A stretch of 48,806 nt of DNA from Terriglobales bacterium (GTDB lineage Bacteria; Acidobacteriota; Terriglobia; Terriglobales; Acidobacteriaceae): positions 1 to 48,806 of the forward strand of contig DATJFA010000254.1 of NCBI GenBank assembly GCA_035496015.1, in the 5' to 3' direction. The position numbers and the translations under genes were made by a program. Positions 4,835 through 40,750 of this stretch are shown piece by piece. How positions within the stretch are numbered: position 1 is the stretch's first letter; every line of letters begins with the position of its first letter. Under the pieces are notes generated by a model. The model was given only the letters and a program-made list of their open reading frames with translations, was not told where the DNA came from and did no database searches.

Positions 4835-7800
4835 TTAATTTACCGTCAGCGATATTGGAACGGAGTGGCTTACGCTGCCGGAGCTTCCAGTTACTGTAAG
4901 CGTGTAGGTGCCAGCTGGAGTCCCGGGAGAGGGCGGTGGCGGAGGGACATGGACGCCTCCTCCCCCGCACGAAGGCAGTAGGGCCAGCAGCAGCAGCACC
5001 AGTGCGAGAACCCAAAGCACAGGCCGAATGGTCCGCCGACGAATACCCACTAATGGAAATGCCATGAGCCCCAGGGGCAGCGTAAAGATGGCAGCTGTCA
5101 AGAATGGAAAATTAGGTGGTCGCAAAGCCGCTGTTGCCGCGCTCGTAGAGACGGCTACCTTCACAATGCCACCGTGCAAACCATCGAGTCCCACGCTGCT
5201 CGGCGAGGGATTGCACGTAGATTCCGCAGGAGCCCCGGTGCAGCTGATGGTCACGGTTGTTCCACTGAGGCCACCCAGGGGTAAAACCAGAAGATTGAAG
5301 CTCCCGGATGCACCCGCCTTCAAGACAAGGGATTGCGCGCTGGGAGTAAAGCTGTAATCCACCACGGTTAGAGTCACGAATAGCGGACTGCCCGCGCCGT
5401 TGTAAGAGATAGAGAGCAGGCCGGGGTCATTCTCCGCTGTCTGCGGCATAAACGTAACATCAACCGAGCAAGAGGAGCCGGCAGCGATGGTCGCGCCGGT
5501 GCAGGTGTCGGTTTCGCCAAACGAGTTTGAGGCAACCTGGAACCCGACCTTGGAAATATTCAAAGCCGTGTTTCCTGTGTTCTTCACGGTGACAGTTTGT
5601 GTGCCTCCAGTTGTTGCTTGAAAGGTCAGATTTGTAGGCGTCACGCTTGCCAGTGGGGTGGCTGCGGCAGATAAATCAATTTTTGTGAGAAACGCGTTGG
5701 TGCAGCAGGTAAAGCTACTCGACAATCCTCCGGCGAGCAGCGGGAAATTAACCGAGGCCGTCCACCCCGTTATGTACACGTGGCCGGTTGAATCCAAAGC
5801 CGCACCGCAGCCAAATTCCCGCTCAGATCCACCCAGGTACGAGCCAAAAACCAGGGCGGAAGTCTTGAGGTTTACAACCCCGATGTAACAGTCGTTCCCA
5901 CCGTTATAGGTATCTTGAATGGCGTTGGCCAGTGGAAGCCCGGCAGTGTTACCTTGGCCGGCGACATATATATTTTCCGACGCGTCCACCGCGAATCCGC
6001 TTCCCGCAGGCAGGCCGGGAGCGGAATAGATTAGGGAGGAGCCTGCAGTATTGAACTTCGCGTAGAGCGACCCGCCGGCGACATAAGCCTCTCCCAACGC
6101 GTCAACACCTACAACCGTCGCGCCCAGATTGCTGCCGGCGGAGCCAAAGTAAGTGGAGTAGTCCAAGGTCGAACCGCCAGGAGCAAATTTCGTGAGGAAG
6201 CCATTGAAACCGGTTCCGCTCAGCGTTGCCTGGTATGGATTTTTCGTTGGGAAATCTGTGGCAGCCGTACCGCCGGCGACATAGATTGCGCCCGTGCTGT
6301 CTACCACGACCGACGACGCAAAGTTACCACCTGTCGTCCCGCCGAGGAAGGTAGAGAAAACCAGCCCACTCCCGTCAGGCTTGACCTCAGTAACGAACGC
6401 ATCGCCGGAAATACCTGGGCTGGCGCCTCCGTTGTTGACGGTTTGGAAGGCGCCGGGAGTAGTGGGGAAATCGCTTCCGCTGGCAAGCCCAGCCACGTAC
6501 GCGTTCCCGGCAGAATCCACGGTAATCGCATAGCCGACGTTTATCCCCGCCTTTCCTCCCAGATATGTCGAGTAGACGAGTTTTGAACCGGTGGGATTCA
6601 GCTTGCTCACGAACGGAATGCATCCCTGCGTGTCTTCCAGCTTTGTCTGGAAAGCCCCCGTCGTAACGGGGAAGTCCGTTGCCGTGGTATATCCCGTCAA
6701 ATAGACGTTATCCGATGAATCGAGAGCGATAAACGGCCCACTCTCGCCGCCAATTCCGGTGTTGGTCGTTCCCCCAAAGTAGGTGGTGTAAACCAGCGCT
6801 GAACCGGTCGAATTCACCTTCGCCACGAACGCCACGCCGCCGGTCGTGTTGGAAGCGCCGGGAGTGGTGGGGAAATTCGGTTGGTTCGTCGGCCCGGTGA
6901 TAAACAAGTTTCCCGAAGAGTCCACGGCCATACTGGAGCCGGACCCCTGAAAACCAAGGAAGGTGGAGTAGACCAGGCCGGGATCAATCACCAGCGGCTG
7001 CGATTTGTCATATGGACCAAGCTCGAAGCGAACTTGGTTTGAGGATGTCAGGACAAAGTGACCACGTACGGACCTGGTATTCCTGGCAACAGATTGTGAA
7101 CTTGTACGCGTGGTGGAAACCTTCGGCTGATACACCACCGGCTTAGTCAACCGGAGGGCACTCGAGCCCCCTTCGATGAGGACATTGCCCGTCTTATCCA
7201 TTCGCAGCCGCGGCAGGCGTTGCCCATCTGATGCGCCTTCGAAACCCAGCGCGATGACGCTGGGATCAGCTCCGGGCTGGACGACAAAATCGTACTCAAG
7301 CTGCCCTTCACGGCTGTAATAAACCAGGTCAATGCCCGGATAGACATTCTTGTAGCGGACATTTGAATAGGTTGGAATGTTGCTACGCCAGTTCTTCTGA
7401 TCGTTCCCGACGAAATAGTTGACCTTACCCGGGAGTTCATCCATCCCCGAAAATTCGGGTGTCGGATTAGCACCGACTAACCGCATGCGCACAAGATCGT
7501 TGGTTGAGTGCTCTTTCTCCGCGCTCCCCGGCCACGGACGGCTCCGACGTGACAATGCGTGATGCTCTTCCTTGAGATCTCTGCTTCCCGATTTCTGAGT
7601 ATCGAGTGAAAGTAGCGCTTCCGTCTGAGTCAAAAATAGGGTGTAGCCAGGCCCATGAGTGAGGAATTTGACTTGTTCACTCGCCTGTCCCTGGTTAACT
7701 TCGAAGCTCAAAGGCAGTTTGCCGTAGCTTCCTGCCAAGTGCGCCTTTGCTGCTCCAGCAATCGAACTGGGCCTGAGGATCGGTTGGATATTCGCTTGCT

Positions 7801-7909
7801 TGGCGGGTTTGGGCGCATGCTCGGAGAGTGCGGCTCCGCCTGTGGACACCGGCAGCAATGCCAGTCCCACCCCGGCCAGGGCACCCAGAATCTGTCGACT
7901 CAGCGGCAT
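4835..7909 (-). CDS. Large secreted SBBP beta-propeller-repeat protein with an Ig-like/choice-of-anchor-like domain and an unusual C-terminal anchor module
   Basis: Repeated DSSGNxYxTG…DFPTTxGAFQ units (SBBP type). The ATG at 7909 has the SD gaggag and starts a signal peptide (MPLSRQILGALAGVGLALLP). The C-terminus has two hydrophobic segments and ends in GTYTLTVTGSSGSVSHSVPISLTVN. Confidence 0.9.
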   Translation of the reverse strand: MPLSRQILGALAGVGLALLPVSTGGAALSEHAPKPAKQANIQPILRPSSIAGAAKAHLAGSYGKLPLSFEVNQGQASEQVKFLTHGPGYTLFLTQTEALLSLDTQKSGSRDLKEEHHALSRRSRPWPGSAEKEHSTNDLVRMRLVGANPTPEFSGMDELPGKVNYFVGNDQKNWRSNIPTYSNVRYKNVYPGIDLVYYSREGQLEYDFVVQPGADPSVIALGFEGASDGQRLPRLRMDKTGNVLIEGGSSALRLTKPVVYQPKVSTTRTSSQSVARNTRSVRGHFVLTSSNQVRFELGPYDKSQPLVIDPGLVYSTFLGFQGSGSSMAVDSSGNLFITGPTNQPNFPTTPGASNTTGGVAFVAKVNSTGSALVYTTYFGGTTNTGIGGESGPFIALDSSDNVYLTGYTTATDFPVTTGAFQTKLEDTQGCIPFVSKLNPTGSKLVYSTYLGGKAGINVGYAITVDSAGNAYVAGLASGSDFPTTPGAFQTVNNGGASPGISGDAFVTEVKPDGSGLVFSTFLGGTTGGNFASSVVVDSTGAIYVAGGTAATDFPTKNPYQATLSGTGFNGFLTKFAPGGSTLDYSTYFGSAGSNLGATVVGVDALGEAYVAGGSLYAKFNTAGSSLIYSAPGLPAGSGFAVDASENIYVAGQGNTAGLPLANAIQDTYNGGNDCYIGVVNLKTSALVFGSYLGGSEREFGCGAALDSTGHVYITGWTASVNFPLLAGGLSSSFTCCTNAFLTKIDLSAAATPLASVTPTNLTFQATTGGTQTVTVKNTGNTALNISKVGFQVASNSFGETDTCTGATIAAGSSCSVDVTFMPQTAENDPGLLSISYNGAGSPLFVTLTVVDYSFTPSAQSLVLKAGASGSFNLLVLPLGGLSGTTVTISCTGAPAESTCNPSPSSVGLDGLHGGIVKVAVSTSAATAALRPPNFPFLTAAIFTLPLGLMAFPLVGIRRRTIRPVLWVLALVLLLLALLPSCGGGGVHVPPPPPSPGTPAGTYTLTVTGSSGSVSHSVPISLTVN

Positions 7910-7976
7910 AAATGGCTCCTCTGCGGACGCTTGTTTGGCCACGGCGTTCCCTGCGTCCTGGAAAGTGCGTCCTTCC

Positions 7977-8007
7977 TATTACACGGACACAGCTTGACTT
8001 TTTTCGC
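7977..8007 (-). promoter_or_regulatory. Candidate ECF-type promoter motif upstream of the SBBP gene
   Basis: The minus strand reads gcgaaaaaagtcaagctgtgtccgtgtaata. It matches 10270-10300 at 24 of 31 ungapped positions, including an exact gtccgtgtaata block. Confidence 0.4.
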
Positions 8008-8135
8008 TAGAAACGTTTTTACGGACATCAGCTACCGAGCTCACGCCGGCAAAAAAACCAGCGTGAGCTTCGGGGTGCGTAGTGTGCATCGGGTTGCATA
8101 CCGTTCAGGTCGGGTGCCGCCGGCCAAGCCGGGCT

Positions 8136-8816
8136 TCAGGGATGGCTAAGGCTGATGTTGAAGCTCAAGTAATACTGTCCAACCAAGGTCCCACCGTTAT
8201 AGAGGTTGGCAACGTTGGCATTCGAAGCGTTTGGCCCGGTCGTCGGGACGTCGCTCCACGAACTGCAGGGCGAGGAATTGCTCGTGCAGGTCACCGTCGC
8301 GGTGCCGGTCCCCGAAACCTGTGGGGACATAACCAGGGAGTAACCGACTCCTCCATAGCTAAAGTTCGCCCGCATGGCGCAGTTGTTGTCTGAAGTTACA
8401 ATTTGCGTCCAGTTCTGGAGGCCCAGGCTGGGCGTAAAGCAGCGGCTATAGAGCTGGCCATTAAATGGCATCGGACCGGCAAACGGTCCAGCGGGTGAGC
8501 CATTCACCGGGGTTAGTGTCAGATTGAACGAGCGCGAGGAGTTGCTCAAATCGAAACTCCACTGGTAATAGTTGGTCGGGCCGTTGTTGGGAGTAATCTG
8601 GCTAAGAAGCGAGCCAGCGTTGGTATACGGGCCCCCTCCGTCGTCCTGCAGGGTATAAGAGTTGCTGTTGGCATCGCAGCAGCCGCTTGAGATTGTGGCC
8701 GTGACCGAGTACCTGCTGCCCGCCAGCGCGGCGGAGGCGACGACGAGCAGCGCAAACAAGGCACACAACAAACGGCCTGCCGCTGGATTCCTGAGAATCT
8801 GCGCTAAGTTCCTCAT
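8136..8816 (-). CDS. Secreted protein of unknown family (226 aa), paralogous to the C-terminal domain of 9199-10230
   Basis: SD aaggaga and a signal peptide. Conserved blocks are shared with the 351-aa neighbour (RCF…, YxxVMSPxxxGTG, CxxW, VANLY, …SFNISLSHP end). Confidence 0.8.
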   Translation of the reverse strand: MRNLAQILRNPAAGRLLCALFALLVVASAALAGSRYSVTATISSGCCDANSNSYTLQDDGGGPYTNAGSLLSQITPNNGPTNYYQWSFDLSNSSRSFNLTLTPVNGSPAGPFAGPMPFNGQLYSRCFTPSLGLQNWTQIVTSDNNCAMRANFSYGGVGYSLVMSPQVSGTGTATVTCTSNSSPCSSWSDVPTTGPNASNANVANLYNGGTLVGQYYLSFNISLSHP

Positions 8817-8845
8817 GGGTATTCTCCTTAAGTAAGTTGTCTGCT

Positions 8846-8899
8846 TCGAAACAAAGAGGCCGCCAGTCCAAGTCCATTAGGACTCGAACCGACGGCCTC
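8846..8899 (-). terminator. Structured intergenic element / possible terminator after the 66-aa gene
   Basis: On the minus strand, stem gaggccg…cggcctc encloses the inner hairpin agtcc-taat-ggact and is followed by tttgtttcg. A second perfect hairpin gcttcgg-ctgg-ccgaagc lies at 8905-8922. Confidence 0.35.
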
Positions 8900-8945
8900 C
8901 GAGAGCTTCGGCCAGCCGAAGCGGAACCTGGTTTTTCAGTGCTCC

Positions 8946-9146
8946 CTAAGGAGCAAACTTTATTTTCTTTACGGCCAATTCAGCGATCATGGGCAGTCCA
9001 TCCTGGATCTTCAGTTTCTCAATTTCTCCATGCCCGAGTTCAGTGCAATACCGGATGAATTGCAGCCAAGCCGAATGCAGGCTGACCTGCTTGGGCGATC
9101 CAGTCATTTGGCTGGCGGCCGAATGTTTCGCGTTTGCGTCCGGCAT
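8946..9146 (-). CDS. Small cytoplasmic hypothetical protein (66 aa)
   Basis: SD gaggt upstream of the ATG. Protein-like sequence …LHSAWLQFIRYCTELGHGEIEKLKIQDGLPMIAELAVKKIKFAP. No signal peptide. Local GC is visibly lower. Confidence 0.6.
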   Translation of the reverse strand: MPDANAKHSAASQMTGSPKQVSLHSAWLQFIRYCTELGHGEIEKLKIQDGLPMIAELAVKKIKFAP

Positions 9147-9198
9147 ATCCGTTACCTCACCCAGACCATAAAGAAAATTGTCCCCTTATAATTCTGTG

Positions 9199-10230
9199 TT
9201 ACGGGTGCGTCAGGGTAATGTTGAAAGTCATTTTGTATGTCCCGACAAGTGTCAGTCTACCCGCCTTCCCCACCGTGTAGAGGTTAGCCACACTCGCCAG
9301 GCTCGGATTTGGCAGCAGATTACCGGGAGTCGGAGCGATCGTCCAGGCGGTGCAACCATCCGTGGCCGAACTGGCAACGCAGGCGACCGTAGACCAACCG
9401 GTGCCGGCATAGCTCGGGCTCATGACATAGAAATAACCTGTGCCGTTGGCAGCCGTGAAATTAAACCGCAGGGAACAGCGGTTGTTGGAAGTGTTGGCCG
9501 GAATGGTCAAAGGAATGCTCACCCAACTATTGCTTGCGTTAAAGCAGCGGGTGGCTACGGCCAGCGGGTAGAGGCCATCAAGCGCGGACTCGTCCGGGGA
9601 ACCGGGAAGTGCCAGGAAGCTTAGACGTATCTTGCGATTGCTGCCGGAGTAGGCGCGCAAATACCAGTCATTAGGCAGCAGGCTCATTGTGATGCAGGTT
9701 TTTTGCGCCGCAGTTGAATAAGTGGAACAGCTGTTGGGATCATTCTCATAGGTTGAAGCCCCTGAGGAGTTAAGAACCAGATCATCGCCCTGAACCGTCA
9801 CCGCGGCCCCGGTTGTGTCGGTATTGGACACAATAGACGTCACAGCCTCCGGATTGACCGTGAATTGATCACTCCCCACACCGGTGCGGCCGCTTGTATT
9901 TTTGACCACGATGTCGTAGCCGCTGACGGTTGCGTTCCCCGGAATGGTGATGTTCGCCACCACCTGGCTGGAGTTGACGAAGGTGGTTGAGTTCACCATG
10001 ACACCGCCGGTGTCAGTTGTGCCGGTGACGTACCAGGTGGTTGTCGCACCATTGGCAAATCCGCTACCGGCAACCTTTACGTTAAGGTTAACCGTGCCCT
10101 GCTGAGCATTATTTGGGGTGGCGGAGGTGACAGTGATCTGCCCAGCTGCGCGCTGCACGTTGAACCCCAGCACGATAGCGACCAAACACCCGCCGGTTAA
10201 AGCCCTTAGCGTCTTGGGTTGTTTTCGCAT
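9199..10230 (-). CDS. Secreted protein: N-terminal Ig-like (IPT/TIG-like) domain plus an unknown C-terminal domain shared with 8136-8816
   Basis: The ATG at 10230 has the SD aggtga and a signal peptide (MRKQPKTLRALTGGCLVAIVLGF…AAG). The C-terminus …VANLYTVGKAGRLTLVGTYKMTFNITLTHP parallels the 226-aa protein. Confidence 0.8.
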   Translation of the reverse strand: MRKQPKTLRALTGGCLVAIVLGFNVQRAAGQITVTSATPNNAQQGTVNLNVKVAGSGFANGATTTWYVTGTTDTGGVMVNSTTFVNSSQVVANITIPGNATVSGYDIVVKNTSGRTGVGSDQFTVNPEAVTSIVSNTDTTGAAVTVQGDDLVLNSSGASTYENDPNSCSTYSTAAQKTCITMSLLPNDWYLRAYSGSNRKIRLSFLALPGSPDESALDGLYPLAVATRCFNASNSWVSIPLTIPANTSNNRCSLRFNFTAANGTGYFYVMSPSYAGTGWSTVACVASSATDGCTAWTIAPTPGNLLPNPSLASVANLYTVGKAGRLTLVGTYKMTFNITLTHP

Positions 10231-10269
10231 GGGTTTCTCACCTGCCATCTTCAAAAGACTGCTTGTCCG

Positions 10270-10300
10270 TATTACACGGACTCGGCTGAGCTTTTTCCGG
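10270..10300 (-). promoter_or_regulatory. Candidate ECF-type promoter motif upstream of the 351-aa secreted protein gene
   Basis: The minus strand reads ccggaaaaagctcagccgagtccgtgtaata. It begins 6 nt after the CHAT gene stop, about 40 nt upstream of the ATG at 10230. Confidence 0.4.
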
Positions 10301-10305
10301 AAAAT

Positions 10306-13254
10306 TTAATCCATACTTCCCACCAGCACAAATGGAGCCCAGAAATAAGGCCGGTCGTAGGGGCCACCTTTGCTCCGCATGGCGTGTTCGGCGGCGCTCA
10401 GAGCGCCTGCTTTGCTGTTGCCGGGAAGCCGGCGATAAAAGTCGGCCATAAACTGCGCCGTGGACTTGTCGTTTACCTCCCACAGGCTGGCCAGCACCGT
10501 CCGGCTCCCTGCAGTCAAAAAGGCGCGTGTCAAACCTACAAAATCGTCGCCGGCAGGTATTTCGCTGAAATAGCCGCTGCCTAAGGCGGTGTCACATGCG
10601 CTGAGTGTTACCAGGCTGGCGTGTAGATGAAGCCCAAGGATTTCATGCACTTCCAGAAGTCCGTCGTCTTGGCCGCTGGCCTCCAACTCCAATCCTGAAA
10701 GCAGGGGGGCGTAACGGTTCAAATACCCATGTGTAGCCAGGTGAAGGAAGCGATAATTGCTCGCGCTTCGCTCGAATCTATCCTTGGTGGCGTTCTTGCC
10801 GGTCAGGATCAGCTTTTTGGAGGGAAACAGCCGACCGACGTCCGTCACCTCATCAGCGGCATATTTCAGATGGGCGCGCGCCGGCGCCATGGCCAGCAGG
10901 TCGCCCTTGGGCGCAGGGCCGCGATGCAAGGTCAGCACTGCGGCAGACGGCAGATAGGCGAGAGCGTACTCATCTCCCAGGAAACGGCCTCCCTCGCTTG
11001 CTGTGCGCGCCAAGGCAGCAAATGGCAAATAATTCAGAACGCCATTGGGCACAAGATATAGCCTTTGCACGCCTGCGAGCCAGCCCTGCTGCTCCACTGG
11101 GCTGATCAGCACATGACGCAGACCGGCTGCTGGAAGTCGCCAGGAATGCCCATTCGCACGTACAATCAGATCCCGCAGCAGTTCCACCCGCGAGCGCAGG
11201 TTTTCCGCCCGAATAGATACGGTCGTGGCGCGTATCTTCTCAGAAGTGAGCACAAAGATGGCCAGGTTGTCTTCCGCAATCACGTATTCGATCAGAGCAG
11301 TGTTGGGCGGAAGCAGCTTTTGCAGTTGCGCCGCGGATGGAAGGGCCAGCGCGTGCCATGTCACATAGGTCGGGTCGGAGCGACGCAGATCGTCCAGCAA
11401 GTCCTGGTAAGCACGCTCAGCAGCCGCCAGATCCTTGGAAAATGTATCCAGTGCCTGCCCGCGGCGCTGGTTGGCCGGCTGCGTCCATTCTGCATTGATC
11501 AGCCTGCGCAGCTGACGGATGCGCTCCCTCAACTCCATCTCCGTCTGTCGCTGCACTGCATTTTGGGGGCCGGGCATGCCCCGGTTGAGCTGGTCGAGGA
11601 AGCTTTGTGCCCTTAATCTTTCGGAATAAACGAAGGCCTCACCCGGCTGCTGCAACTTCAGCAACAGCTCCACCAGCGCCACATAGACCTGATATTTATC
11701 CTCTACGTAGCCTGCGCGAAAACGTTCCTCGGCAAGCTGGCCACGCACACCCTCGATGATGGTTACGGCCTGCTTGTAGGCCGTCAGCGCTTCGTGCAGC
11801 CGCCCCAGCTTTTCCAGACACTGCCCGCGTCCATAAGCGATTTGCCAGTCGAGGTCGGGGTCCCGCACCATCTTTTCGATTTCGGAAGCCGCAGTGTATT
11901 CCCCCAGGGCCGCCTCCGATTGCTGGCCCATCCGCCGGGTCTCGGCCAAGCCGTAATGAGCCCAGGCCTCACGCGGCGGAATGGCTGAGCCTTGCGCCGC
12001 TGCCAGTGCTTCTTTGGCCTCCGTCTGTGCCTCAACCAGCTTGCCCCCGCGGCCATGCTCAAGCGCCAGCTCCATTAGCGCTTGCGCAGCGCTGTCCTGA
12101 TCACCTGCTTTGCGCGCTCGGTTCAAGGCAGCCTCATATAATCCTTCGGCTTGCGGGTAGCGCTTGCGCCGCCACTCCAGATTGCCAAGCGACAGCAGAT
12201 TGGTCATGATGCCGCGATCATTGCCGATAGTTTGGGCGATCTCCAGGGCGTGCCGGAAGTCCTGTTCCCCCGAGGAAGAATCCCCCAGCATGACGTATAA
12301 ATTGCCGGTATCGTTCAACGCTTCCACCAATTCGCGTTTGAGCTCCGCGTGCTCGTAGACCTTCTGCGCCTGCTCATATTCCTGTATGGCCGGCCCAAAT
12401 TTGCCCAAACGCAACAGGGTTTCGCCCTTGCCTTTGTGCCAGTCCGCCTGTTCTTTCTCCAGTCCCGCATCTTGTGCCAGGCGCAGCGCCTGGTCAAAGC
12501 TGGACAGCGCCTTTTCGCTGTCACCTAATGCCGTGTAGCAGATGGCCATGTTGCCCAGCTCAATGCTGGCAGTGGGTGTGAGCCCGAGGCGCTCATGGAT
12601 GGCCAGAGCTTGCTGGTAATACTCCAGAGCTTTCCGGTATTCACCCAGCAGCAGGTGAACACCACCCATATTGGCCAAGGTGTCGCCCTGGCCACGCTGA
12701 TTGTCCGAGGCGCGGTGAATCCGCAACGCCTGCTCATATTGCCTCTGGGATTGGCGGTAGTCGCCCAGTTCGTCATAGACCAGTCCCAGGTTGTTGTGCG
12801 CCTGGCCCTCCAGTTCGTGCTCGTTGAGCTCATGTCCCAGCGCGATAGCTTCCTGAAAATGGCCAATCGCCTTGCCGTATTCGGCCCTGTCCCAGTAAAT
12901 GAGGCCTAACTGGTTGTGCGATCTCCCCACTTCCAGCTTGTCGCCAAGCTCCTGTTTAATCGCCATCGCGCGTTGTACATAGTCCAGGGCGCGTGGAAGG
13001 TCGCCCGCGCGCCGATAGCAATTCCCCATGTAGCCGAGGGTGATTGCTTCCCGGTGCCGGTCCCTGGATTCGCGGAACATCTCCAGGGCATGTTCGAACT
13101 CGGGAAGCGCCACTTTTGGCCCTTGTTGAATGTACGTCTGTCGCGCGTGTGCAATCAGTTCGTCAGGATCTGGCGGCCGGGCAGGGCGATTCTGCGCGCT
13201 CCCCGGAGCTGCACACAGAAAGGCCGCGAACAGCAATAAAAAACTTACTTTCAC
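10306..13254 (-). CDS. Secreted TPR-repeat + CHAT (caspase-like) domain protease
   Basis: Sec-type signal MKVSFLLLFAAFLCAAPGSAQ and many TPR units (…NLGLVYDELGDYRQSQRQYEQALRI…). The C-terminal CHAT domain has His in FLHLATHGY and Cys in LVTLSACDTALG. The GTG start has the SD ggagaa, 17 nt after the anti-sigma stop. Confidence 0.9.
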   Translation of the reverse strand: MKVSFLLLFAAFLCAAPGSAQNRPARPPDPDELIAHARQTYIQQGPKVALPEFEHALEMFRESRDRHREAITLGYMGNCYRRAGDLPRALDYVQRAMAIKQELGDKLEVGRSHNQLGLIYWDRAEYGKAIGHFQEAIALGHELNEHELEGQAHNNLGLVYDELGDYRQSQRQYEQALRIHRASDNQRGQGDTLANMGGVHLLLGEYRKALEYYQQALAIHERLGLTPTASIELGNMAICYTALGDSEKALSSFDQALRLAQDAGLEKEQADWHKGKGETLLRLGKFGPAIQEYEQAQKVYEHAELKRELVEALNDTGNLYVMLGDSSSGEQDFRHALEIAQTIGNDRGIMTNLLSLGNLEWRRKRYPQAEGLYEAALNRARKAGDQDSAAQALMELALEHGRGGKLVEAQTEAKEALAAAQGSAIPPREAWAHYGLAETRRMGQQSEAALGEYTAASEIEKMVRDPDLDWQIAYGRGQCLEKLGRLHEALTAYKQAVTIIEGVRGQLAEERFRAGYVEDKYQVYVALVELLLKLQQPGEAFVYSERLRAQSFLDQLNRGMPGPQNAVQRQTEMELRERIRQLRRLINAEWTQPANQRRGQALDTFSKDLAAAERAYQDLLDDLRRSDPTYVTWHALALPSAAQLQKLLPPNTALIEYVIAEDNLAIFVLTSEKIRATTVSIRAENLRSRVELLRDLIVRANGHSWRLPAAGLRHVLISPVEQQGWLAGVQRLYLVPNGVLNYLPFAALARTASEGGRFLGDEYALAYLPSAAVLTLHRGPAPKGDLLAMAPARAHLKYAADEVTDVGRLFPSKKLILTGKNATKDRFERSASNYRFLHLATHGYLNRYAPLLSGLELEASGQDDGLLEVHEILGLHLHASLVTLSACDTALGSGYFSEIPAGDDFVGLTRAFLTAGSRTVLASLWEVNDKSTAQFMADFYRRLPGNSKAGALSAAEHAMRSKGGPYDRPYFWAPFVLVGSMD

Positions 13255-13271
13255 CCGACATTCTCCAGTGA

Positions 13272-14033
13272 CTATCTGGCAATTGTGAAGGGCACCGGCT
13301 CGGACTTAATTGTCCTGCCATCGTGCAGATAGGCACGCACCCATACAAAGTAGTTCCCCGGTTGTAGCGGCAACTCGGGTGGCAGCTGCGCCGTGGGACT
13401 TGACGCCTGTCCTTGCCACGTCAAGTCACCTTCGGAATTCGCAACCCGCAGCTCGTAGTAAGCAGCATCGCCCACCGGTTTCCAGCGAAACCGTAAGCGG
13501 TATCTAAGCACCACCGATTCCGGCTGAGGCTCCAGCACTTCCACCATCTGCGCCGGCCTCAGCTTGCGGACATATTGCTCCTCCGTAGGCTGGGATGGGG
13601 GTTGCAGGCTGGCCATGGGCGGCTGCGACTTCTCAATTGCGGAAGCGGATATCGAAGCCGAAGACCGGCCAGGTGGCAGCGCTCGCAGCAAGACCAGAGC
13701 GGCAACAACGAGGGCGGCGAACGCCGGAACCAGCACCCATCGCCGCGGGCTTCGCCACCCGGTTCCTGCGGGTATGGCGCTGGCTGCCTTACCAATCAAC
13801 TGAGGCGGGGCTTCCGAAAGTTGCGGAGCCCTCTGCTGCCGAACCAGCCCTCCGAGGATATCCAGACAGAAGTCGCAATCTGAGAGATGTGCCTCGAGAC
13901 GTGCCCTTTCTTTCGGCCCTAGATGTTGTTCTAAATAGGCGGCTACCACCTTGTCGGATGGGCAGTTCCATCTTCGCGGCGCAATTTTTCGTGGTCCTGA
14001 CCCGATGGTCCGAATTAGTTCGTATTCATCCAT
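13272..14033 (-). CDS. zf-HC2 type single-pass anti-sigma factor with an extracytoplasmic Ig/Fn3-like domain
   Basis: CPSDK…HLSDCDFC zinc-finger motif, TM segment WVLVPAFAALVVAALVLL, and a C-terminal beta-rich domain (RFRWKPVGDAAYYELRV…GNYFVWVRAY). Confidence 0.8.
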   Translation of the reverse strand: MDEYELIRTIGSGPRKIAPRRWNCPSDKVVAAYLEQHLGPKERARLEAHLSDCDFCLDILGGLVRQQRAPQLSEAPPQLIGKAASAIPAGTGWRSPRRWVLVPAFAALVVAALVLLRALPPGRSSASISASAIEKSQPPMASLQPPSQPTEEQYVRKLRPAQMVEVLEPQPESVVLRYRLRFRWKPVGDAAYYELRVANSEGDLTWQGQASSPTAQLPPELPLQPGNYFVWVRAYLHDGRTIKSEPVPFTIAR

Positions 14034-14107
14034 GACTAAAAAGCTGAGGCTGGGGCATTTTCTGTCCCACTCCTATTTCACGGACACCAGCTGCGCTTTT
14101 CCGCCGG

Positions 14108-14917
14108 TCAGGTCATGTTTTTTCGCAGTTTCTCAAGAATGGCTGCAATTTGGCGATGGATCCACTGCGCATCACTGGCCGCCGTAAGCCGCGCGATCTC
14201 TTCCAGGGTCAGGCTCTGTTCAAAGCGCAGGCGGATGAGCAGCCGTTCAGGCTTGGTCAGCTTCTGGAGGGCTATCCAGAGCTGGTGTTCCTGTTCACGG
14301 GAGGCCAGCGCCAATTCCTGGTTGGGGTGTGGATCGGCCGGGTCATTGGCCGGCGCTTCCATTACACCGATGTTTGATTCCTGCGACATTGATTGCCGCT
14401 GCAGCTTTTGCGTGCTTCTGAGCCAATGCTGCCGCGAACTCAGTGATGCCTGAATCTGCCCTTCGGCGGCGGCAAGCCGCTCCAGGGTCAGCCCGGGAAA
14501 GGCCGGCCGCAGCGAGACCAGGGTATCCTCCAGGGACAGGCCCTTTTCGAAATGACAGCGGTAAACCTCCGCTTCCAGAGGCGGAAGCTGCGCGATGGAA
14601 CGAAACAGGCGTGGCCGGCCAAACTCCTTGCGCCGCCAATCAAGGCATAGGTTGCGGACCACCACGCGCAACCAGGTGGAAAACGCTGCCGATCCAGCCG
14701 GCCGAAAGCGCAGCAACCGGCGAAAACCATTCTTGCTCAGCTGTTCGCAGGCGAACAGAAAACAGTCCCCCGCCTGATCTTCGTCAGAGGTCGAATACCG
14801 GCAGGTTTCGAAGATAACGGAGCTGTACTGGCCTAAGAATTCCGCCCACACCTCTTGCGAGCGGCTAGAGCGAAGTCCTTCCAGGAGCAAAGCGACCGCA
14901 GAGTCTTGCGTGGACAT
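14108..14917 (-). CDS. ECF-like sigma-70 factor with an extra sigma-4-like segment
   Basis: Region 2 (…FSTWLRVVVRNLCLDWRRK) and two HTH-like region-4 segments (LPPLEAEVYRCHFEKGLSLEDTL and LTKPERLLIRLRFEQSLTLEEIARL). The ATG at 14917 is preferred over the track's GTG at 14956. Confidence 0.8.
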   Translation of the reverse strand: MSTQDSAVALLLEGLRSSRSQEVWAEFLGQYSSVIFETCRYSTSDEDQAGDCFLFACEQLSKNGFRRLLRFRPAGSAAFSTWLRVVVRNLCLDWRRKEFGRPRLFRSIAQLPPLEAEVYRCHFEKGLSLEDTLVSLRPAFPGLTLERLAAAEGQIQASLSSRQHWLRSTQKLQRQSMSQESNIGVMEAPANDPADPHPNQELALASREQEHQLWIALQKLTKPERLLIRLRFEQSLTLEEIARLTAASDAQWIHRQIAAILEKLRKNMT

Positions 14918-15299
14918 CTGGTCTTGCCTGGGGCAACGCCGGAATACTCCGGACACTTGCGGAGCGCGCGCAGTCTAGCCGAGGAAACCCACAAAGTCCA
15001 GCAGGTTATTGGACTAAGGGGAGAAACATCGGCTCACAACCTTCTTCTGTGCGGCTGTTGAAATGATGTGCTAGAAGAGCTTCTTCGACGTGCTTGACAG
15101 GACTGCCTTCACTGCCGGGCAGAGTCAAATGGCAATTAAGATTCAGGCGATTGTTTAACAACTCTATGAAACAAAATAGATTAGGGCTTTGTTCTTGAGT
15201 CCTATCAAGCGAGCAGGAGCACTGAGCAGACGGGGGCTAGATGCTGCTAGACACGATTCTACACAGGGCTAGAAATAATTCTCTCACCCGTAGTCGCCG

Positions 15300-15757: not shown

Positions 15758-18700
15758 TCACTGCACTGTGAGGGTGAGGGCGATTGAATGGGATACGCTG
15801 CCGGAACTGGCGGTTACCGTGATGGTGTAATCCGCCGGCTGCGTTGGCGCCGGGTGAGCAGAGCTTCCGCATCCCAGGAAGACACCCGTGACTGCCAATA
15901 CCATCAACAGCAGAGCGGCGAAGAGCGCTTGCTTACGCGACAGGCGCCGGCATCGTAGCCCGAAGGGCAGTACCAGCATTCCCAACGGCAAGGCCAGGCA
16001 AAGGGCCCAACTGGTGGAGCTGCGAACCGCGGCACTGGCAGCGGGCACCTGGACAGCCACCGTGACATCGGTCGCCTCAGCTCCGGCCGCGATGGTACGA
16101 GGAGTGATGGTGATGGTGGCACCCGCTGGTCCCCCGGTTGCCGAAAGCGTTACCGCGGCTGGAAGCACCGACCCGCTGGACGGAGCAATCGTCAGGTGAT
16201 AGGTTGCGGTCCCGCCTGCGGAGACGGTGGCCGTGCGAGCTCCGCCGGTGGCCAGATCCAGGGTCACATCGGAGACCGCCAGCGACAGAGCCGAACTGGT
16301 CACGGACAAAAAGATCGAATCCCCCTCGTACACTGCCGTGAGCGAGTGCGTGCCCTCGGGCAGGCTGGAAGTGGCGTAGGTGGCAACGCCCGAGGCCACG
16401 GTGCCTGAACCCAGGAGGGTGGCTTCATCGTAAAAACTAACCGACCCGCTGGGGGTGCCTGAGGAAGAAAAGACGGTGGCCGTGAGGGTAACAGTGCCCG
16501 ACAGGAGGGCAGGATTGGCCGACGATTCCAACACTACGGAGGCTGACCCGCGAACGCCAGTTCCGCTTACCGCGACGTTCTGAGTAACATCGCTGCCGTT
16601 GAGGTGATTGTTGGTGACGACCACGTTTGTGCTGAGGCTTCCAGCCGACTGCGGTGTAAACAACACGGATACGTCGCAACCCTCGCCCGGATCCAGCGAT
16701 GTCGTGGAGGTACACAGGTTCGTGTCCGAGGAATTCTCGGAGAAATCCGCCGTGTAGCTGGGCACGGCGCTGAAAGCGAGCGCATGGATTCCGAGGTTGG
16801 TTACTGTCGCCGTCTTGGGGCTGTCGCTACTGGTTGCTCCCACGTGCGTGTTGGCGAAGCTGAGCGCTGAACCGGCGACGTTCACCTTCATCACACGATT
16901 GTTAGTGAAGTCAGGAATGAAGATGTTTCCGTTGCTATCAACCGTGACGCTGAACACGAAGATTCCGAGGGTCTGACCGGGCGTCTGGATAACGGAGGTG
17001 ACGCCGGCGGAGGTCAACTGGACGATACGGCCGTGACCAGAATCAACGATGAAAAGGTTGCCATTTCCGTCTGCCACCACGCCCTGGGTGTTGCTCAGCG
17101 TAATTCCGGTAAGAGAGACCAGGGAAGCTGCGCCGGAGGGGGCGACCTTGACCACTCGACTGCCGCGGTCAGCGATGTAGACATTTCCGCTGGGGTCAAC
17201 TGCTACTCCGGTGAGAGTGACTGTGTCGAAGGTATAACTCCCTGTAGCCAGGACATACCCGGCGCCGGCCGGGGTTACTTTGACAATGCGGCCGCGGCCA
17301 TAGTCTGCGATGTAGAGATTTCCCGCTCCGTCCATGGCTAAGCCGGCCGGGTAGCTGATGGCGGTGGCTAGGCCGGTAATGCTGACTAATGAGACGGCGC
17401 CGTCGCATTTCACCAGCACAATGCGACTGTTGCCATAATCGGCAATGTACAGATTGCCGGCTCCATCAAGAACCACGCCGGTGGGTTGAGAGAGGGTGTA
17501 CGCGCCCGTGCTCACCAGGGAGGCGCTGCCGCCGCCGGCAGCGATTTTCATCACCTTGCCCGTGTTGTAACTGGACAGGTAGATGTTGCCCGCTCCGTCA
17601 ATGGCGGTTTGGAATGGTCCGCTGAGGGATAGTCCTCCCGTGCTCACGATACTGGCGGTTCCGGGCGAGAGCGCGGCCAAGGGAGCGCCGCCGGTGCCGT
17701 AGATGGGGACCACAGCCAAAAGTTCGGAACTCTGGTCGAACAGGGCCACCGCGCCCCGCCGCAGACCGGGCAACAGTGGCAGGAATTGCACTTCCACGTT
17801 GCAGGTCGTGTTAGTCGTACCGTTGGTGCAGGTAGTGCCCGCGCCCAGCGTGAAGTCGAGGCTTTGCACGCCCAGCGTTAGCGCCTGCACGCTGCCCAGC
17901 GTTGTGGCCACATTAATAGTGAATGGCAGGGTCAGGGACCTGGCGGAGGAGGCCCCGACTTCCAGTTCGCCGAACGCCACAGCCGAGGTCATCTGCAGCG
18001 CAACACGACTGTTGGCGGTATCGGCGACATAGATTACTCCCGAAACATCCACCACCACAGCAGCGGGAGTACTGAAGGTAAGGCTGCCGGTGGTCGGGAC
18101 GGAGCCGGCTCCGCCCGAGGTGACCTGCACCACCCGGTTGTTGCCCGCATCAGCGATGAAAACATTGGCAAAAGAATCCACGGCAACCCCGAGGGGTGCA
18201 CTCAGGGCAGTTCCCAGTCCCGAGATGCTCAAGGCGGAGCCTGCGCCCCCGGTGGTTACCTTCACGATGCGGTTATTGCCCGAGTCGGCGATGTAGAGGT
18301 TTCCCGCCACATCCACGGCTAAACCCACAGGCGCGCTCAACGCGGTTCCCAAGCCGGTAATGCTGAGCACAGCCGCGCTACCGCCTGATGGCAGTTTCAC
18401 GATGCGGTCGTTGCCCGTATCCGCAATGTAGAGATTGCCCGAGGCATCAATTGCCACGCCTTTGGGGGCACTGAGGGTGAGGCCGCCAAGATCAACCGCC
18501 GATCCCGCGCCCGCTGAGGTAACCATAACAATGCGGTTATTGCCGGTATCGGCGATGTAGAGATTGCCGGAACCGTCGAGCGCCAGTCGCTCCGGCGCGC
18601 TCAGGCCTGTGCTCAATCCGGTGATGGTCAAGGCAGATGCTTCGCCGGCCGGCGTCGCCTTGACGATCTGACTGTGAGCCGTATCGGCGATGTAGATGTT

Positions 18701-34668: not shown

Positions 34669-34795
34669 CCAGCCCCGAAGACGGAAGAGTTCTTGTGAAA
34701 CGTTCTTTCGCCCCGCTGGGGCTATGAATTTACTCCACTTTGTACCCCGGACGTACGTCCCGGGCTACATTCTGGTGCCGCTCCGCGGCTCAAGA
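34669..34795. repeat. REP/MITE-like palindromic region
   Basis: agcccc…ggggct arms (34671-34722) and the near-perfect palindrome cccggacgtacgtcccggg (about 34746-34765). Confidence 0.4.
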
Positions 34796-40687: not shown

Positions 40688-40750
40688 ATCGGCTCCAGGT
40701 TACGGTGCTGCTAAAAACTATTTCCTGTTGAGGACTTCGCCTGATTCCTT

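Follow-up and report, generated by a model that had tools for sequence, protein, structure and literature searches.

Does a caspase-like protease release a sigma factor by cutting the anti-sigma encoded next to it? Pairs of extracytoplasmic function (ECF) sigma and anti-sigma factors are the third main mode of bacterial signalling, and to our knowledge anti-sigma inactivation is understood for a few types only. The question is raised by a stretch of 48,806 nucleotides from a Terriglobales bacterium (contig DATJFA010000254.1 of assembly GCA_035496015.1; this whole stretch is called the window). On its minus strand six consecutive genes encode an ECF-like sigma, an anti-sigma, a TPR-CHAT protein with a predicted export signal, and three smaller proteins. 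The original prediction read these genes as one operon with a cargo of secreted proteins, likened it to the CRISPR-associated Craspase, suggested the CHAT protein as site-1 protease of the anti-sigma, and did not know the arrangement as a described signalling system. On the last point there is a precedent, Myxococcus xanthus DdvA, for which the same CHAT site-1 idea was proposed in 2024 (PMC11506125).

All six open reading frames are present where they had been placed. Neighbourhoods collected from three independent anchors delimit the core to five of these genes, not six, and this core is closed by a conserved structured terminator RNA. Its parts, in order of transcription, are:

14108..14917, minus strand: ECF-like sigma factor, 269 aa (Pfam Sigma70_r2/r4, NCBIfam TIGR02937, orthologue alignments)
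13272..14033, minus strand: predicted single-pass zinc-type (CHCC) anti-sigma, 253 aa (zf-HC2, alignments)
10306..13254, minus strand: TPR-CHAT caspase-like cysteine protease, 982 aa, predicted to be Sec-exported (Pfam, alignments, AlphaFold2, Foldseek)
9199..10230, minus strand: secreted two-domain all-beta protein, 343 aa (alignments, AlphaFold2, Foldseek)
8946..9146, minus strand: cytoplasmic protein, 66 aa, the fifth core gene, perhaps a distant DUF2292 (YezD-like) relative (synteny, Pfam)
8846..8917, minus strand: structured RNA with intrinsic terminator that closes the core (terminator scan, RNAalifold)

Domains of the cluster proteins were called by Pfam and NCBIfam profile searches; signal peptides and the transmembrane helix were called by inspection, hydrophobicity and conservation. 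The domains that had been recognized by eye (Sigma70_r2/r4, zf-HC2, and CHAT with TPRs) were all found by hidden Markov model search.

The three anchors were homologues of the anti-sigma, distant homologues of CHAT, and sigma relatives in metagenomes; the related loci compared with the window are labelled L001, L002 and so on. Homologues of the anti-sigma form only 23 clusters, 47-88% identical, and in the contexts anchored on them sigma, anti-sigma and CHAT stand together in 4/4. These arrays run sigma, anti-sigma, CHAT, a protein of ~335 aa, one of ~67 aa, one of ~225 aa and a DUF7948 protein, and the genes upstream of them differ; a Terriglobales metagenome-assembled genome has the same array minus the sixth gene, which in the window encodes a 226-aa protein. 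Around distant CHAT homologues (50% identity, on long contigs), a sigma of 261-280 aa and an anti-sigma of 261-278 aa lie directly upstream in 3/3. These anti-sigmas are ~31% identical to that of the window and keep its CHCC ligands, transmembrane helix, variable-length linker and C-terminal beta domain.

The metagenome scan, made with the sigma alignment, gave 255 relatives, and 80 loci were kept, then dereplicated, with a check of each apparent exception. Among the testable loci the sigma is followed by the anti-sigma in 50/51, by CHAT in 31/31, by a protein with the immunoglobulin-like (Ig) N-terminal domain in 17/17 and by the 66-aa protein in 13/15. The sigma/anti-sigma/CHAT trio thus remains a set of neighbours in related loci, and gene order and spacing are kept near-perfectly down to 41% sigma identity. 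Every source with a named organism belongs to Terriglobia or Terriglobales. A separate scan of a genome collection used patterns from the first sigma alignment that were too narrow, and returned 2 loci only. The sole exception to the pairing (L025 591-1187 and L027 5545-6141) is a sigma relative that ends at about residue 195, with no anti-sigma after it; this truncated sigma is possibly a decayed copy.

The downstream end of the module is looser. Some loci hold tandem copies of the 66-aa gene or of the gene with the Ig N-terminal domain (L005 12865-13188 and 15698-15862; L058 14515-15717 and 15811-16878), so the downstream part can duplicate; L007 has only one downstream gene, and L005 has DUF5122 and CBM96 proteins. 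The best explanation for the whole pattern is a conserved, self-contained cell-envelope signalling module of Terriglobia (Acidobacteriota).

The lower boundary of the core is set by the RNA. Immediately 3' of the 66-aa gene the terminator scan finds a 20-bp GC-rich hairpin (8856-8899) and a U tract. Since this conserved strong terminator splits the 66-aa gene from the 226-aa gene, the six genes, real as they are, probably do not form one operon. The RNA consists, in order, of GGCUGA, a 4-bp hairpin (CCGA...UCGG), a long GC-rich hairpin (counted here as 16 bp) based on GGCCG/CGGCC with a variable top, and the U tract. Wherever a locus has the 66-aa gene, this RNA comes after it, and its flanks are conserved in sequence. 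Two pairs of the 4-bp hairpin covary. RNAalifold gives 20 pairs, 11 of them with compensatory changes, and by pair count 94.9% are paired, a value that 0/500 shuffles reach and that compares with 28-51% in slid controls. No Rfam family matches the element, which is a conserved terminator-containing RNA and a new motif. Copies were located at L001 7420-7490 and at L020 16635-16720 and 17575-17660; in L020-L023 the second copy follows the next gene. A tRNA fragment or att site was also considered at ~8880, where GGTTCGAGTCC resembles a T-arm; ARAGORN finds no tRNA, and the segment is one arm of the terminator hairpin.

Is the protease of this module intact, and is it on the right side of the membrane? 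The CHAT gene starts with GTG, 17 nt after the anti-sigma stop as first reported, with GGAGAA upstream, and the protein begins MKVSFLLLFAAFLCAAPGSA followed by QN. Behind the signal peptide (residues 1-20) come ~12 TPR pairs, which a helical linker connects to the CHAT domain. Pfam PF12770 matches with E = 2e-60 over profile positions 4-289 of 289, and many TPR families match also. The His/Cys dyad, checked for degeneracy, is intact: H842 and C887 are invariant in 28 CHAT homologues (50-88% identity), HLA[TAS]HG and LSAC[DEN]T occur in 26/26 further unique full-length CHAT open reading frames, and the dyad is in register with the catalytic HG/AC(E/D)T of Csx29 in solved Craspase structures. 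A signal-peptide-like N-terminus ending in A-x-A before Q is conserved in 26/28 homologues, as the claim of a signal peptide would have it; the other two are truncated gene calls. The best 120 CHAT homologues are 923-1047 aa long and begin with signal peptides, not with a zinc-type anti-sigma (ZAS) domain.

By sequence the protein belongs to the CHAT peptidase family (clan CD caspase fold); protease activity is predicted, and so is export, given the conserved signal. Its AlphaFold2 model (mf752ef40b7b0) has a pLDDT of ~90 in the TPR part and 40-70 in the CHAT part. The top full-length Foldseek match of this model is DdvA (8rw5/8rot, E = 8e-12, ~1000 columns), but the TM-score is 0.22-0.25 and the CHAT region is of low confidence.

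The putative substrate has the anatomy that such a protease would call for. A cytoplasmic ZAS domain is followed by a transmembrane helix, a P/S/Q-rich linker of variable length and a C-terminal beta domain of ~85 aa. The zf-HC2 match scores 22.7 bits, just above the cut-off of 22.2, and among 45 unique anti-sigmas the conservation of C24/H49/C53/C56 and of R156 is 95% or more. The hydrophobic segment at residues ~99-116 is found in all alignments, and it was called a transmembrane helix by inspection. Searches with the ectodomain give weak fn3 and CopC matches, and a PDB search with the anti-sigma gives weak matches to RslA and RsiW. We class the protein as a ZAS-type transmembrane anti-sigma, with zinc and sigma binding predicted.

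R156 (13566-13568, minus strand) is the only conserved residue in the juxtamembrane linker; it lies ~12 residues before the beta domain, mostly with V, I or T in front of it, and may be where the linker is cut or contacted. A variable linker with one conserved residue, joined to a conserved ectodomain, would fit a site-1 substrate, and as judged from the sequences the anatomy is that of a regulated-proteolysis switch. The strong conservation of the ectodomain also implies that a conserved periplasmic partner exists; within the module, TPR-CHAT and the Ig N-terminal domain alone are both periplasmic and invariant. A homology of the anti-sigma ectodomain with that Ig domain, from which competitive binding might have followed, was tried and dropped (hhalign probability 1%).

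The same observations bear on a reading of pure co-regulation: sigma and anti-sigma control an envelope operon that includes CHAT, and CHAT neither contacts nor cuts the anti-sigma. ECF operons often carry target genes, and no direct sign of contact was seen, as this reading expects. It does not account for an order and spacing preserved down to 41% sigma identity or for an ectodomain whose conservation points to a periplasmic partner, and DdvA, a natural fusion, sets a precedent for linkage. We consider it very improbable.

What does the sigma factor read, and how is it itself expressed? The start is ATG, an alternative GTG at 14956 being less likely. Sigma70_r2 scores 25.6 bits (cut-off 24) and Sigma70_r4 35.5 bits (cut-off 24.1), and NCBIfam TIGR02937, at 71.4 bits (cut-off 42.9), makes the protein a member of the sigma70-ECF superfamily. 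Sigma2 spans residues ~45-115 and sigma4 ~215-269. Between them lies a conserved insert of ~95 residues (14273-14620, minus strand; residues ~100-215), which is unusual, as ECF sigmas have a short linker there. The insert has no PDB relative and no Pfam match; a part of it (LPPLEAEVYRCHFEKGLSLEDTLVSL) resembles an extra helix-turn-helix. The cognate anti-sigma is adjacent and the promoter motif described below is of the AAC/CGT type, both marks of ECF membership, and on its sequence we assign the sigma to the ECF family, with an unexplained insert. The main text of the ECF classification paper (PMC7826278) has no mention of CHAT, which says nothing of its supplementary material.

The promoters of the module, including one outside the core, are:

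14972..15000, minus strand: sigma-70-like promoter before the sigma gene, TGGACT (15000-14995), 17-nt spacer, TAGACT (14977-14972)
14072..14109, minus strand: P1, putative ECF promoter, CGGAAAA ... GTCCGTGAAAT, in the 74-nt gap between sigma stop and anti-sigma ATG (exact match 14079-14101, 40.9 bits)
10268..10305, minus strand: P2, putative ECF promoter, CGGAAAA ... GTCCGTGTAAT, between the CHAT stop, which it adjoins, and the Ig-domain gene (exact match 10275-10297, 38.0 bits)
7975..8012, minus strand: P3, putative ECF promoter upstream of the DUF7948 gene (exact match 7982-8005, 40.2 bits)

The promoter in front of the sigma gene is, to judge from its hexamers, of the housekeeping type. TGGACT-N17-TAGACT is kept in close relatives, and a Gibbs sampler run on 62 dereplicated sigma upstream regions converges on TAGA(C/A)T, ~50-140 nt before the start codon; a simple promoter consensus scan does not have this promoter in its list. 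An ECF dyad was sought at the same place and rejected: eight loci share no two-block motif, and the Gibbs sampling yielded only the housekeeping-like -10.

Inside the module the picture is different. Comparison of its internal intergenic regions gave a bipartite motif, gCGGAAAAa-N8-gtGTCCGTG(A/T)AA, equivalent to CGGAAAA-N11-GTCCGTGWAA. GAAAA-N(11-17)-GTCCGTG occurs exactly three times in the 48.8-kb window, against 0.03 expected. With a position weight matrix (PWM) built from related loci, the three sites score 38-41 bits, the next best site in the 48.8 kb scores 3.1, and the best in 20 shuffles 10.5. At a threshold of 18 bits the related loci (640 kb) contain 93 unique sites, namely 65 at P1, 22 at P2, 4 at P3 and 2 elsewhere. 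P3 also precedes the orthologous DUF7948 gene in L001, L002, L008 and L014. Upstream of the sigma gene the motif is absent (0 sites in the window, 0/93 in related loci), and 0/93 lie on the opposite strand. The spacer varies in sequence and is fixed in length, with GGAAA at the same offset in 78/85 sites. The resulting geometry, GGAA-n16-CGT, is the canonical ECF promoter type and equals that of the experimentally mapped DdvS promoters, GTAA-n16-CGT (PMC6061681). At P2 the -10 element sits within a perfect palindrome, GTCCGT-GTAATA-CGGAC (10262-10281, minus strand), which may serve as an operator or fold into a hairpin at the 5' end of the transcript.

The parsimonious view is that the module's own sigma reads this motif, and that its regulon would be the anti-sigma and CHAT, the Ig-domain and 66-aa proteins and, here, the DUF7948 protein, with the sigma itself made constitutively. 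That the sigma switches on the adjacent surface-protein genes, as originally predicted, fits with an ECF-type motif before the adjacent secreted-protein genes; the part of that claim that names the sigma as reader stays a presumption.

The two core proteins behind P2 differ in kind. In the 343-aa protein an Ig/E-set domain of ~100 residues (~30-126) is 46-59% identical across loci, even where the anti-sigma falls to 30%. The C-terminal part is lineage-specific and is swapped for FG-GAP/VCBS repeats, DUF5122 propellers and others. The AlphaFold2 model (pLDDT 85) shows the Ig/E-set domain and then a beta-sandwich; Foldseek returns only IPT/Ig/CopC-like matches for the N-terminal domain, and no significant PDB match for the C-terminal module that the 343- and 226-aa proteins share, despite a confident model. 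The 66-aa protein has no signal peptide. Its family comprises ~212 representative clusters of 60-110 aa with the consensus LHPAW..FIR.C..LG.GEIE.LKIQDGLPV.AE....KVKF. Weak matches to Pfam DUF2292 (PF10055) are found for 6/30 members, the best with E = 2.2e-4, and the protein of the window does not match even at E <= 10. The DUF2292 literature held nothing useful for function.

How would these parts work together? The reading that we favour, tentatively and at somewhat less than an even chance, is that CHAT is the operon-encoded site-1 protease of the anti-sigma. The sigma would be made from its housekeeping-type promoter and held at the membrane by the single-pass CHCC anti-sigma, whose beta domain the exported TPR-CHAT protein would engage in the periplasm. 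On a signal, CHAT would cut the juxtamembrane linker as site-1 protease, with Arg156 as candidate site, and an RseP-type intramembrane protease and cytoplasmic proteases would then release the sigma. Free sigma would use the CGGAAAA-N11-GTCCGTGWAA promoters: P1 for anti-sigma and CHAT, as feedback; P2 for the Ig-domain and 66-aa proteins; and P3, in this lineage, for a large beta-propeller protein anchored at the surface. The Ig-domain protein, constant in its N-terminal and swappable in its C-terminal part, may be a ligand-binding co-sensor docked on TPR-CHAT, or else the main output.

The tight coupling of anti-sigma and CHAT (17 nt) counts in favour of this reading, as do the conserved neighbourhood, the intact dyad together with the export signal, the anatomy of the anti-sigma, the promoter motif and the precedent of DdvA, where the corresponding parts are fused. 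A mirror-tree comparison, which is crude (25 loci, partial correlations given sigma) and to be taken as a hint only, relates the anti-sigma ectodomain to TPR at 0.40 and to CHAT at 0.36, both weak, and the cytoplasmic domain to TPR at 0.18 and to CHAT at 0.25.

Several points weigh against the site-1 reading. The Ig N-terminal domain correlates with CHAT at 0.46, at least as high as the ectodomain does, and the mirror-tree signal is weak and carries no significance test. Both site-1 cleavage by CHAT and the link of the motif to the module's sigma are matters that we infer, and no promoter common to all clades was found upstream of the sigma gene. In DdvA the CHAT site-1 step is itself only proposed; dyad mutants have no phenotype there, and the signal is unknown (PMC11506125). 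The relation to DdvA may moreover be analogy and not shared descent, given no detection by sequence, TM-scores of 0.22-0.25 and a low-confidence CHAT model. Finally, CHAT lies under the putative sigma-dependent promoter P1 and could therefore equally be an output of the regulon.

This last point leads to a reading in which, on some envelope cue, a generic site-1 protease encoded elsewhere (DegS-, Prc- or PrsW-like) triggers the sigma, and the induced CHAT processes the co-induced secreted proteins, for example by cutting between the Ig and the variable C-terminal domain or by acting on anchored surface proteins. PorU and the gingipains are clan-CD peptidases that act on such surface proteins. 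That CHAT is downstream of P1 and the Ig-domain gene under P2 would follow naturally, as would co-regulated proteins that are all secreted or anchored; a constant Ig domain with swapped partners looks like a common recognition handle, and it is this domain that has the highest partial correlation with the CHAT domain (0.46). Yet only the anti-sigma, its gene just upstream at close spacing, accompanies CHAT in all loci, and the presumed clients are variable (the single downstream gene of L007, the DUF5122 and CBM96 proteins of L005). The linker between Ig and C-terminal domain shows no conserved cleavage motif, and what DdvA fuses to TPR-CHAT is an anti-sigma, not cargo. On balance we find CHAT as an output somewhat unlikely.

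A constant handle with a variable domain is also typical of recognition components, and on this a further explanation can be built, in which TPR-CHAT is a periplasmic guard or co-sensor (RseB- or co-receptor-like). Its TPR part would shield the anti-sigma ectodomain, and its protease would be aimed at foreign or misfolded envelope proteins, possibly those of phages or competitors caught by the C-terminal domains of the Ig proteins; engagement of such a substrate would expose the anti-sigma to ordinary proteolysis. In M. xanthus an anti-phage island is under the control of DdvA/DdvS, which is suspected of sensing a protein associated with phages (PMC11506125), and neighbourhoods of caspase, ECF sigma and TPR proteins have been predicted as conflict systems (PMC8195603). 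In the window, membership in a defence system was examined with PADLOC and rejected, as it gave only a generic TPR match and sub-threshold BovA matches. The regulon here consists of surface beta-propeller and Ig proteins, not of nucleases, CBASS or CRISPR, and the chromosomal context is ordinary. These facts make a guard quite unlikely.

Returning to CHAT as site-1 protease, one can extend it, speculatively, to a surveillance cascade: interchangeable periplasmic or surface receptors or baits would dock on the TPR part through their constant Ig handle, capture of a ligand or damage to the variable domain would activate CHAT in trans, the linker would be cut after Arg, and the DUF2292-like protein and the 3' RNA would add a post-transcriptional, cytoplasmic layer. 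We consider this extension unlikely as a whole. If true, it would be a new modular coupling of many external cues or non-self proteins to one sigma, and would include the first demonstrated caspase-family site-1 protease.

Two genes lie beyond the terminator on the same strand, downstream of the core:

8136..8816, minus strand: secreted protein, 226 aa, paralogous to the C-terminal module of the 343-aa protein (38% identity)
4835..7942, minus strand: surface protein of 1035 aa with DUF7948, SBBP beta-propeller, choice-of-anchor D / Ig and 'lipo-invert' tail (Pfam, NCBIfam)

The 343- and 226-aa proteins are indeed paralogous (38% identity over 165 aa, E = 3e-19). The 226-aa gene has no promoter motif of its own and is found only in the close relatives L001, L002 and L008, with a weak match in L053/L054. 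The DUF7948 gene is syntenic in L001, L002, L004, L008 and L014, and is best placed, going by synteny and P3, as a presumptive lineage-specific regulon member of the conserved neighbourhood. The predicted cargo is mixed: one Ig-domain protein and the 66-aa protein are core, and the 226-aa paralogue and DUF7948 protein are confined to particular lineages. The 'lipo-invert' C-terminal anchor (NF058595, cut-off 37) scores 89.3 bits in the 1035-aa protein and 57 bits in a 1038-aa NHL-repeat protein that flanks the module on the other side. Both proteins end (4835-5160 and 15758-16080, minus strand) in a transmembrane segment, an Arg-rich stretch, a second transmembrane segment with lipobox-like LxxCG, and a short beta segment. 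Of the two genes, only that of the DUF7948 protein has the promoter motif.

The surroundings are ordinary acidobacterial genes (pyrroloquinoline quinone dehydrogenase, cytochrome c, MoxR, YchF, MacB/FtsX permeases). Among them are two adjacent tandem MacB_PCD/FtsX permeases of ~895 aa (38006-43441, minus strand), with the domains duplicated in each. An Acido-Lenti-1 RNA (Rfam RF01687, 38 bits against a gathering score of 37) lies at 34745-34790 on the plus strand, and its presence fits the acidobacterial origin of the window.

How does the module compare with known systems? The conflict systems predicted in 2021 from caspase/TPR/ECF-sigma neighbourhoods (PMC8195603) likewise combine a caspase-fold peptidase, a TPR protein and an ECF sigma, and have constant and variable domains. 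By their description they are set apart: they are cytoplasmic, multidomain and effector-associated, occur mainly in multicellular bacteria, and have no ZAS anti-sigma or exported CHAT.

The classical cases of regulated intramembrane proteolysis (Escherichia coli RseA/DegS/RseP with RseB; Bacillus subtilis RsiW/PrsW/RasP) share with the module a single-pass anti-sigma with a cytoplasmic sigma-binding domain, and in them the ectodomain is removed by a site-1 cut in the periplasm, which opens the way to cleavage at site 2, as would be expected here. For rseA, too, a sigma-dependent promoter inside the operon is known to precede the anti-sigma gene. Their site-1 proteases are serine or metalloproteases, mostly encoded elsewhere, whereas the candidate here is an operon-encoded clan-CD cysteine protease with a TPR sensor arm.

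With Craspase (Cas7-11, Csx29, Csx30, Csx31, RpoE) the module shares the genetic linkage of a TPR-CHAT protein to an ECF-type sigma and the idea that proteolysis sets the sigma free. The CHAT domains align (E = 2e-5 against Csx29 in a PDB profile search) with the catalytic His and Cys in register. The homology is distant only: the Csx29 model of NCBIfam (NF041237) gives the CHAT protein 42.6 bits against a cut-off of 300. Craspase is cytoplasmic, RNA-guided and bound to Cas7-11, with Csx30 as substrate; here the protease is predicted to be exported, and the sigma is paired with a membrane ZAS anti-sigma of the classical kind. As had been noted from the sequence, the 48.8-kb window contains no CRISPR array and no cas domain. 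No cluster protein has an NCBIfam match to Csx30 or Csx31, for which no dedicated search was made. A score below cut-off, export and the lack of cas genes together mean that this is not Craspase/Csx29.

The closest known system is DdvS/DdvA, and we know of no other characterised anti-sigma linked to a CHAT protease. DdvA is a single polypeptide made of a ZAS domain, a transmembrane helix, a flexible linker and a periplasmic TPR-CHAT; the active site of one protomer points at the linker of its partner, and RseP degrades DdvA only after removal of TPR-CHAT. The authors of that study propose CHAT autoproteolysis as the site-1 step, which they could not trigger (PMC11506125). Both systems have a CHCC zinc anti-sigma domain, a single transmembrane helix and a long flexible linker, a periplasmic TPR-CHAT with intact His/Cys dyad (by prediction here), ECF promoters of AA-n16-CGT geometry, and the same proposed mechanism of CHAT at site 1 and RseP afterwards. 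A direct sequence link was sought and discarded: the CHAT and sigma profiles retrieve neither DdvA nor DdvS from the PDB (DdvA absent at E <= 1).

The two also differ. In all ~90 loci examined anti-sigma and TPR-CHAT are separate genes, the protease has its own signal peptide, and the anti-sigma carries a small beta domain in place of TPR-CHAT. The core has two extra genes, for the Ig-domain and the DUF2292-like protein. DdvS is autoregulated and translationally coupled to DdvA, whereas the sigma gene here has no ECF promoter; the regulon here would be surface proteins, theirs is CBASS/CRISPR; and the hosts are Acidobacteriota here and Myxococcota there. With separate genes, a sigma that is not autoregulated and a regulon that is not a defence island, this is not a DdvA-type anti-sigma in the strict sense. 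As far as checked, the module is a widespread and previously undescribed split variant of the DdvA-type CHAT-linked ECF switch; a literature search found no paper on the split sigma/anti-sigma/CHAT arrangement, with a mention in the ECF classification supplements possible (PMC7826278).

DdvA, in which protease and substrate are one chain, left open whether the caspase-like domain is the site-1 protease. Nature offers the split version in hundreds of variants among soil Acidobacteria; protease, substrate and candidate co-factor are separate proteins in it, and its main interest is that the proposed caspase-as-site-1 step thereby becomes directly testable. Cleavage can be sought in a narrow candidate region, the linker with its one invariant arginine, and three promoters with a sharp motif are usable as reporters. 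The module also gives a context to the Ig-handle family, the DUF2292-like family and the DUF7948 surface proteins, and adds a new structured RNA motif.

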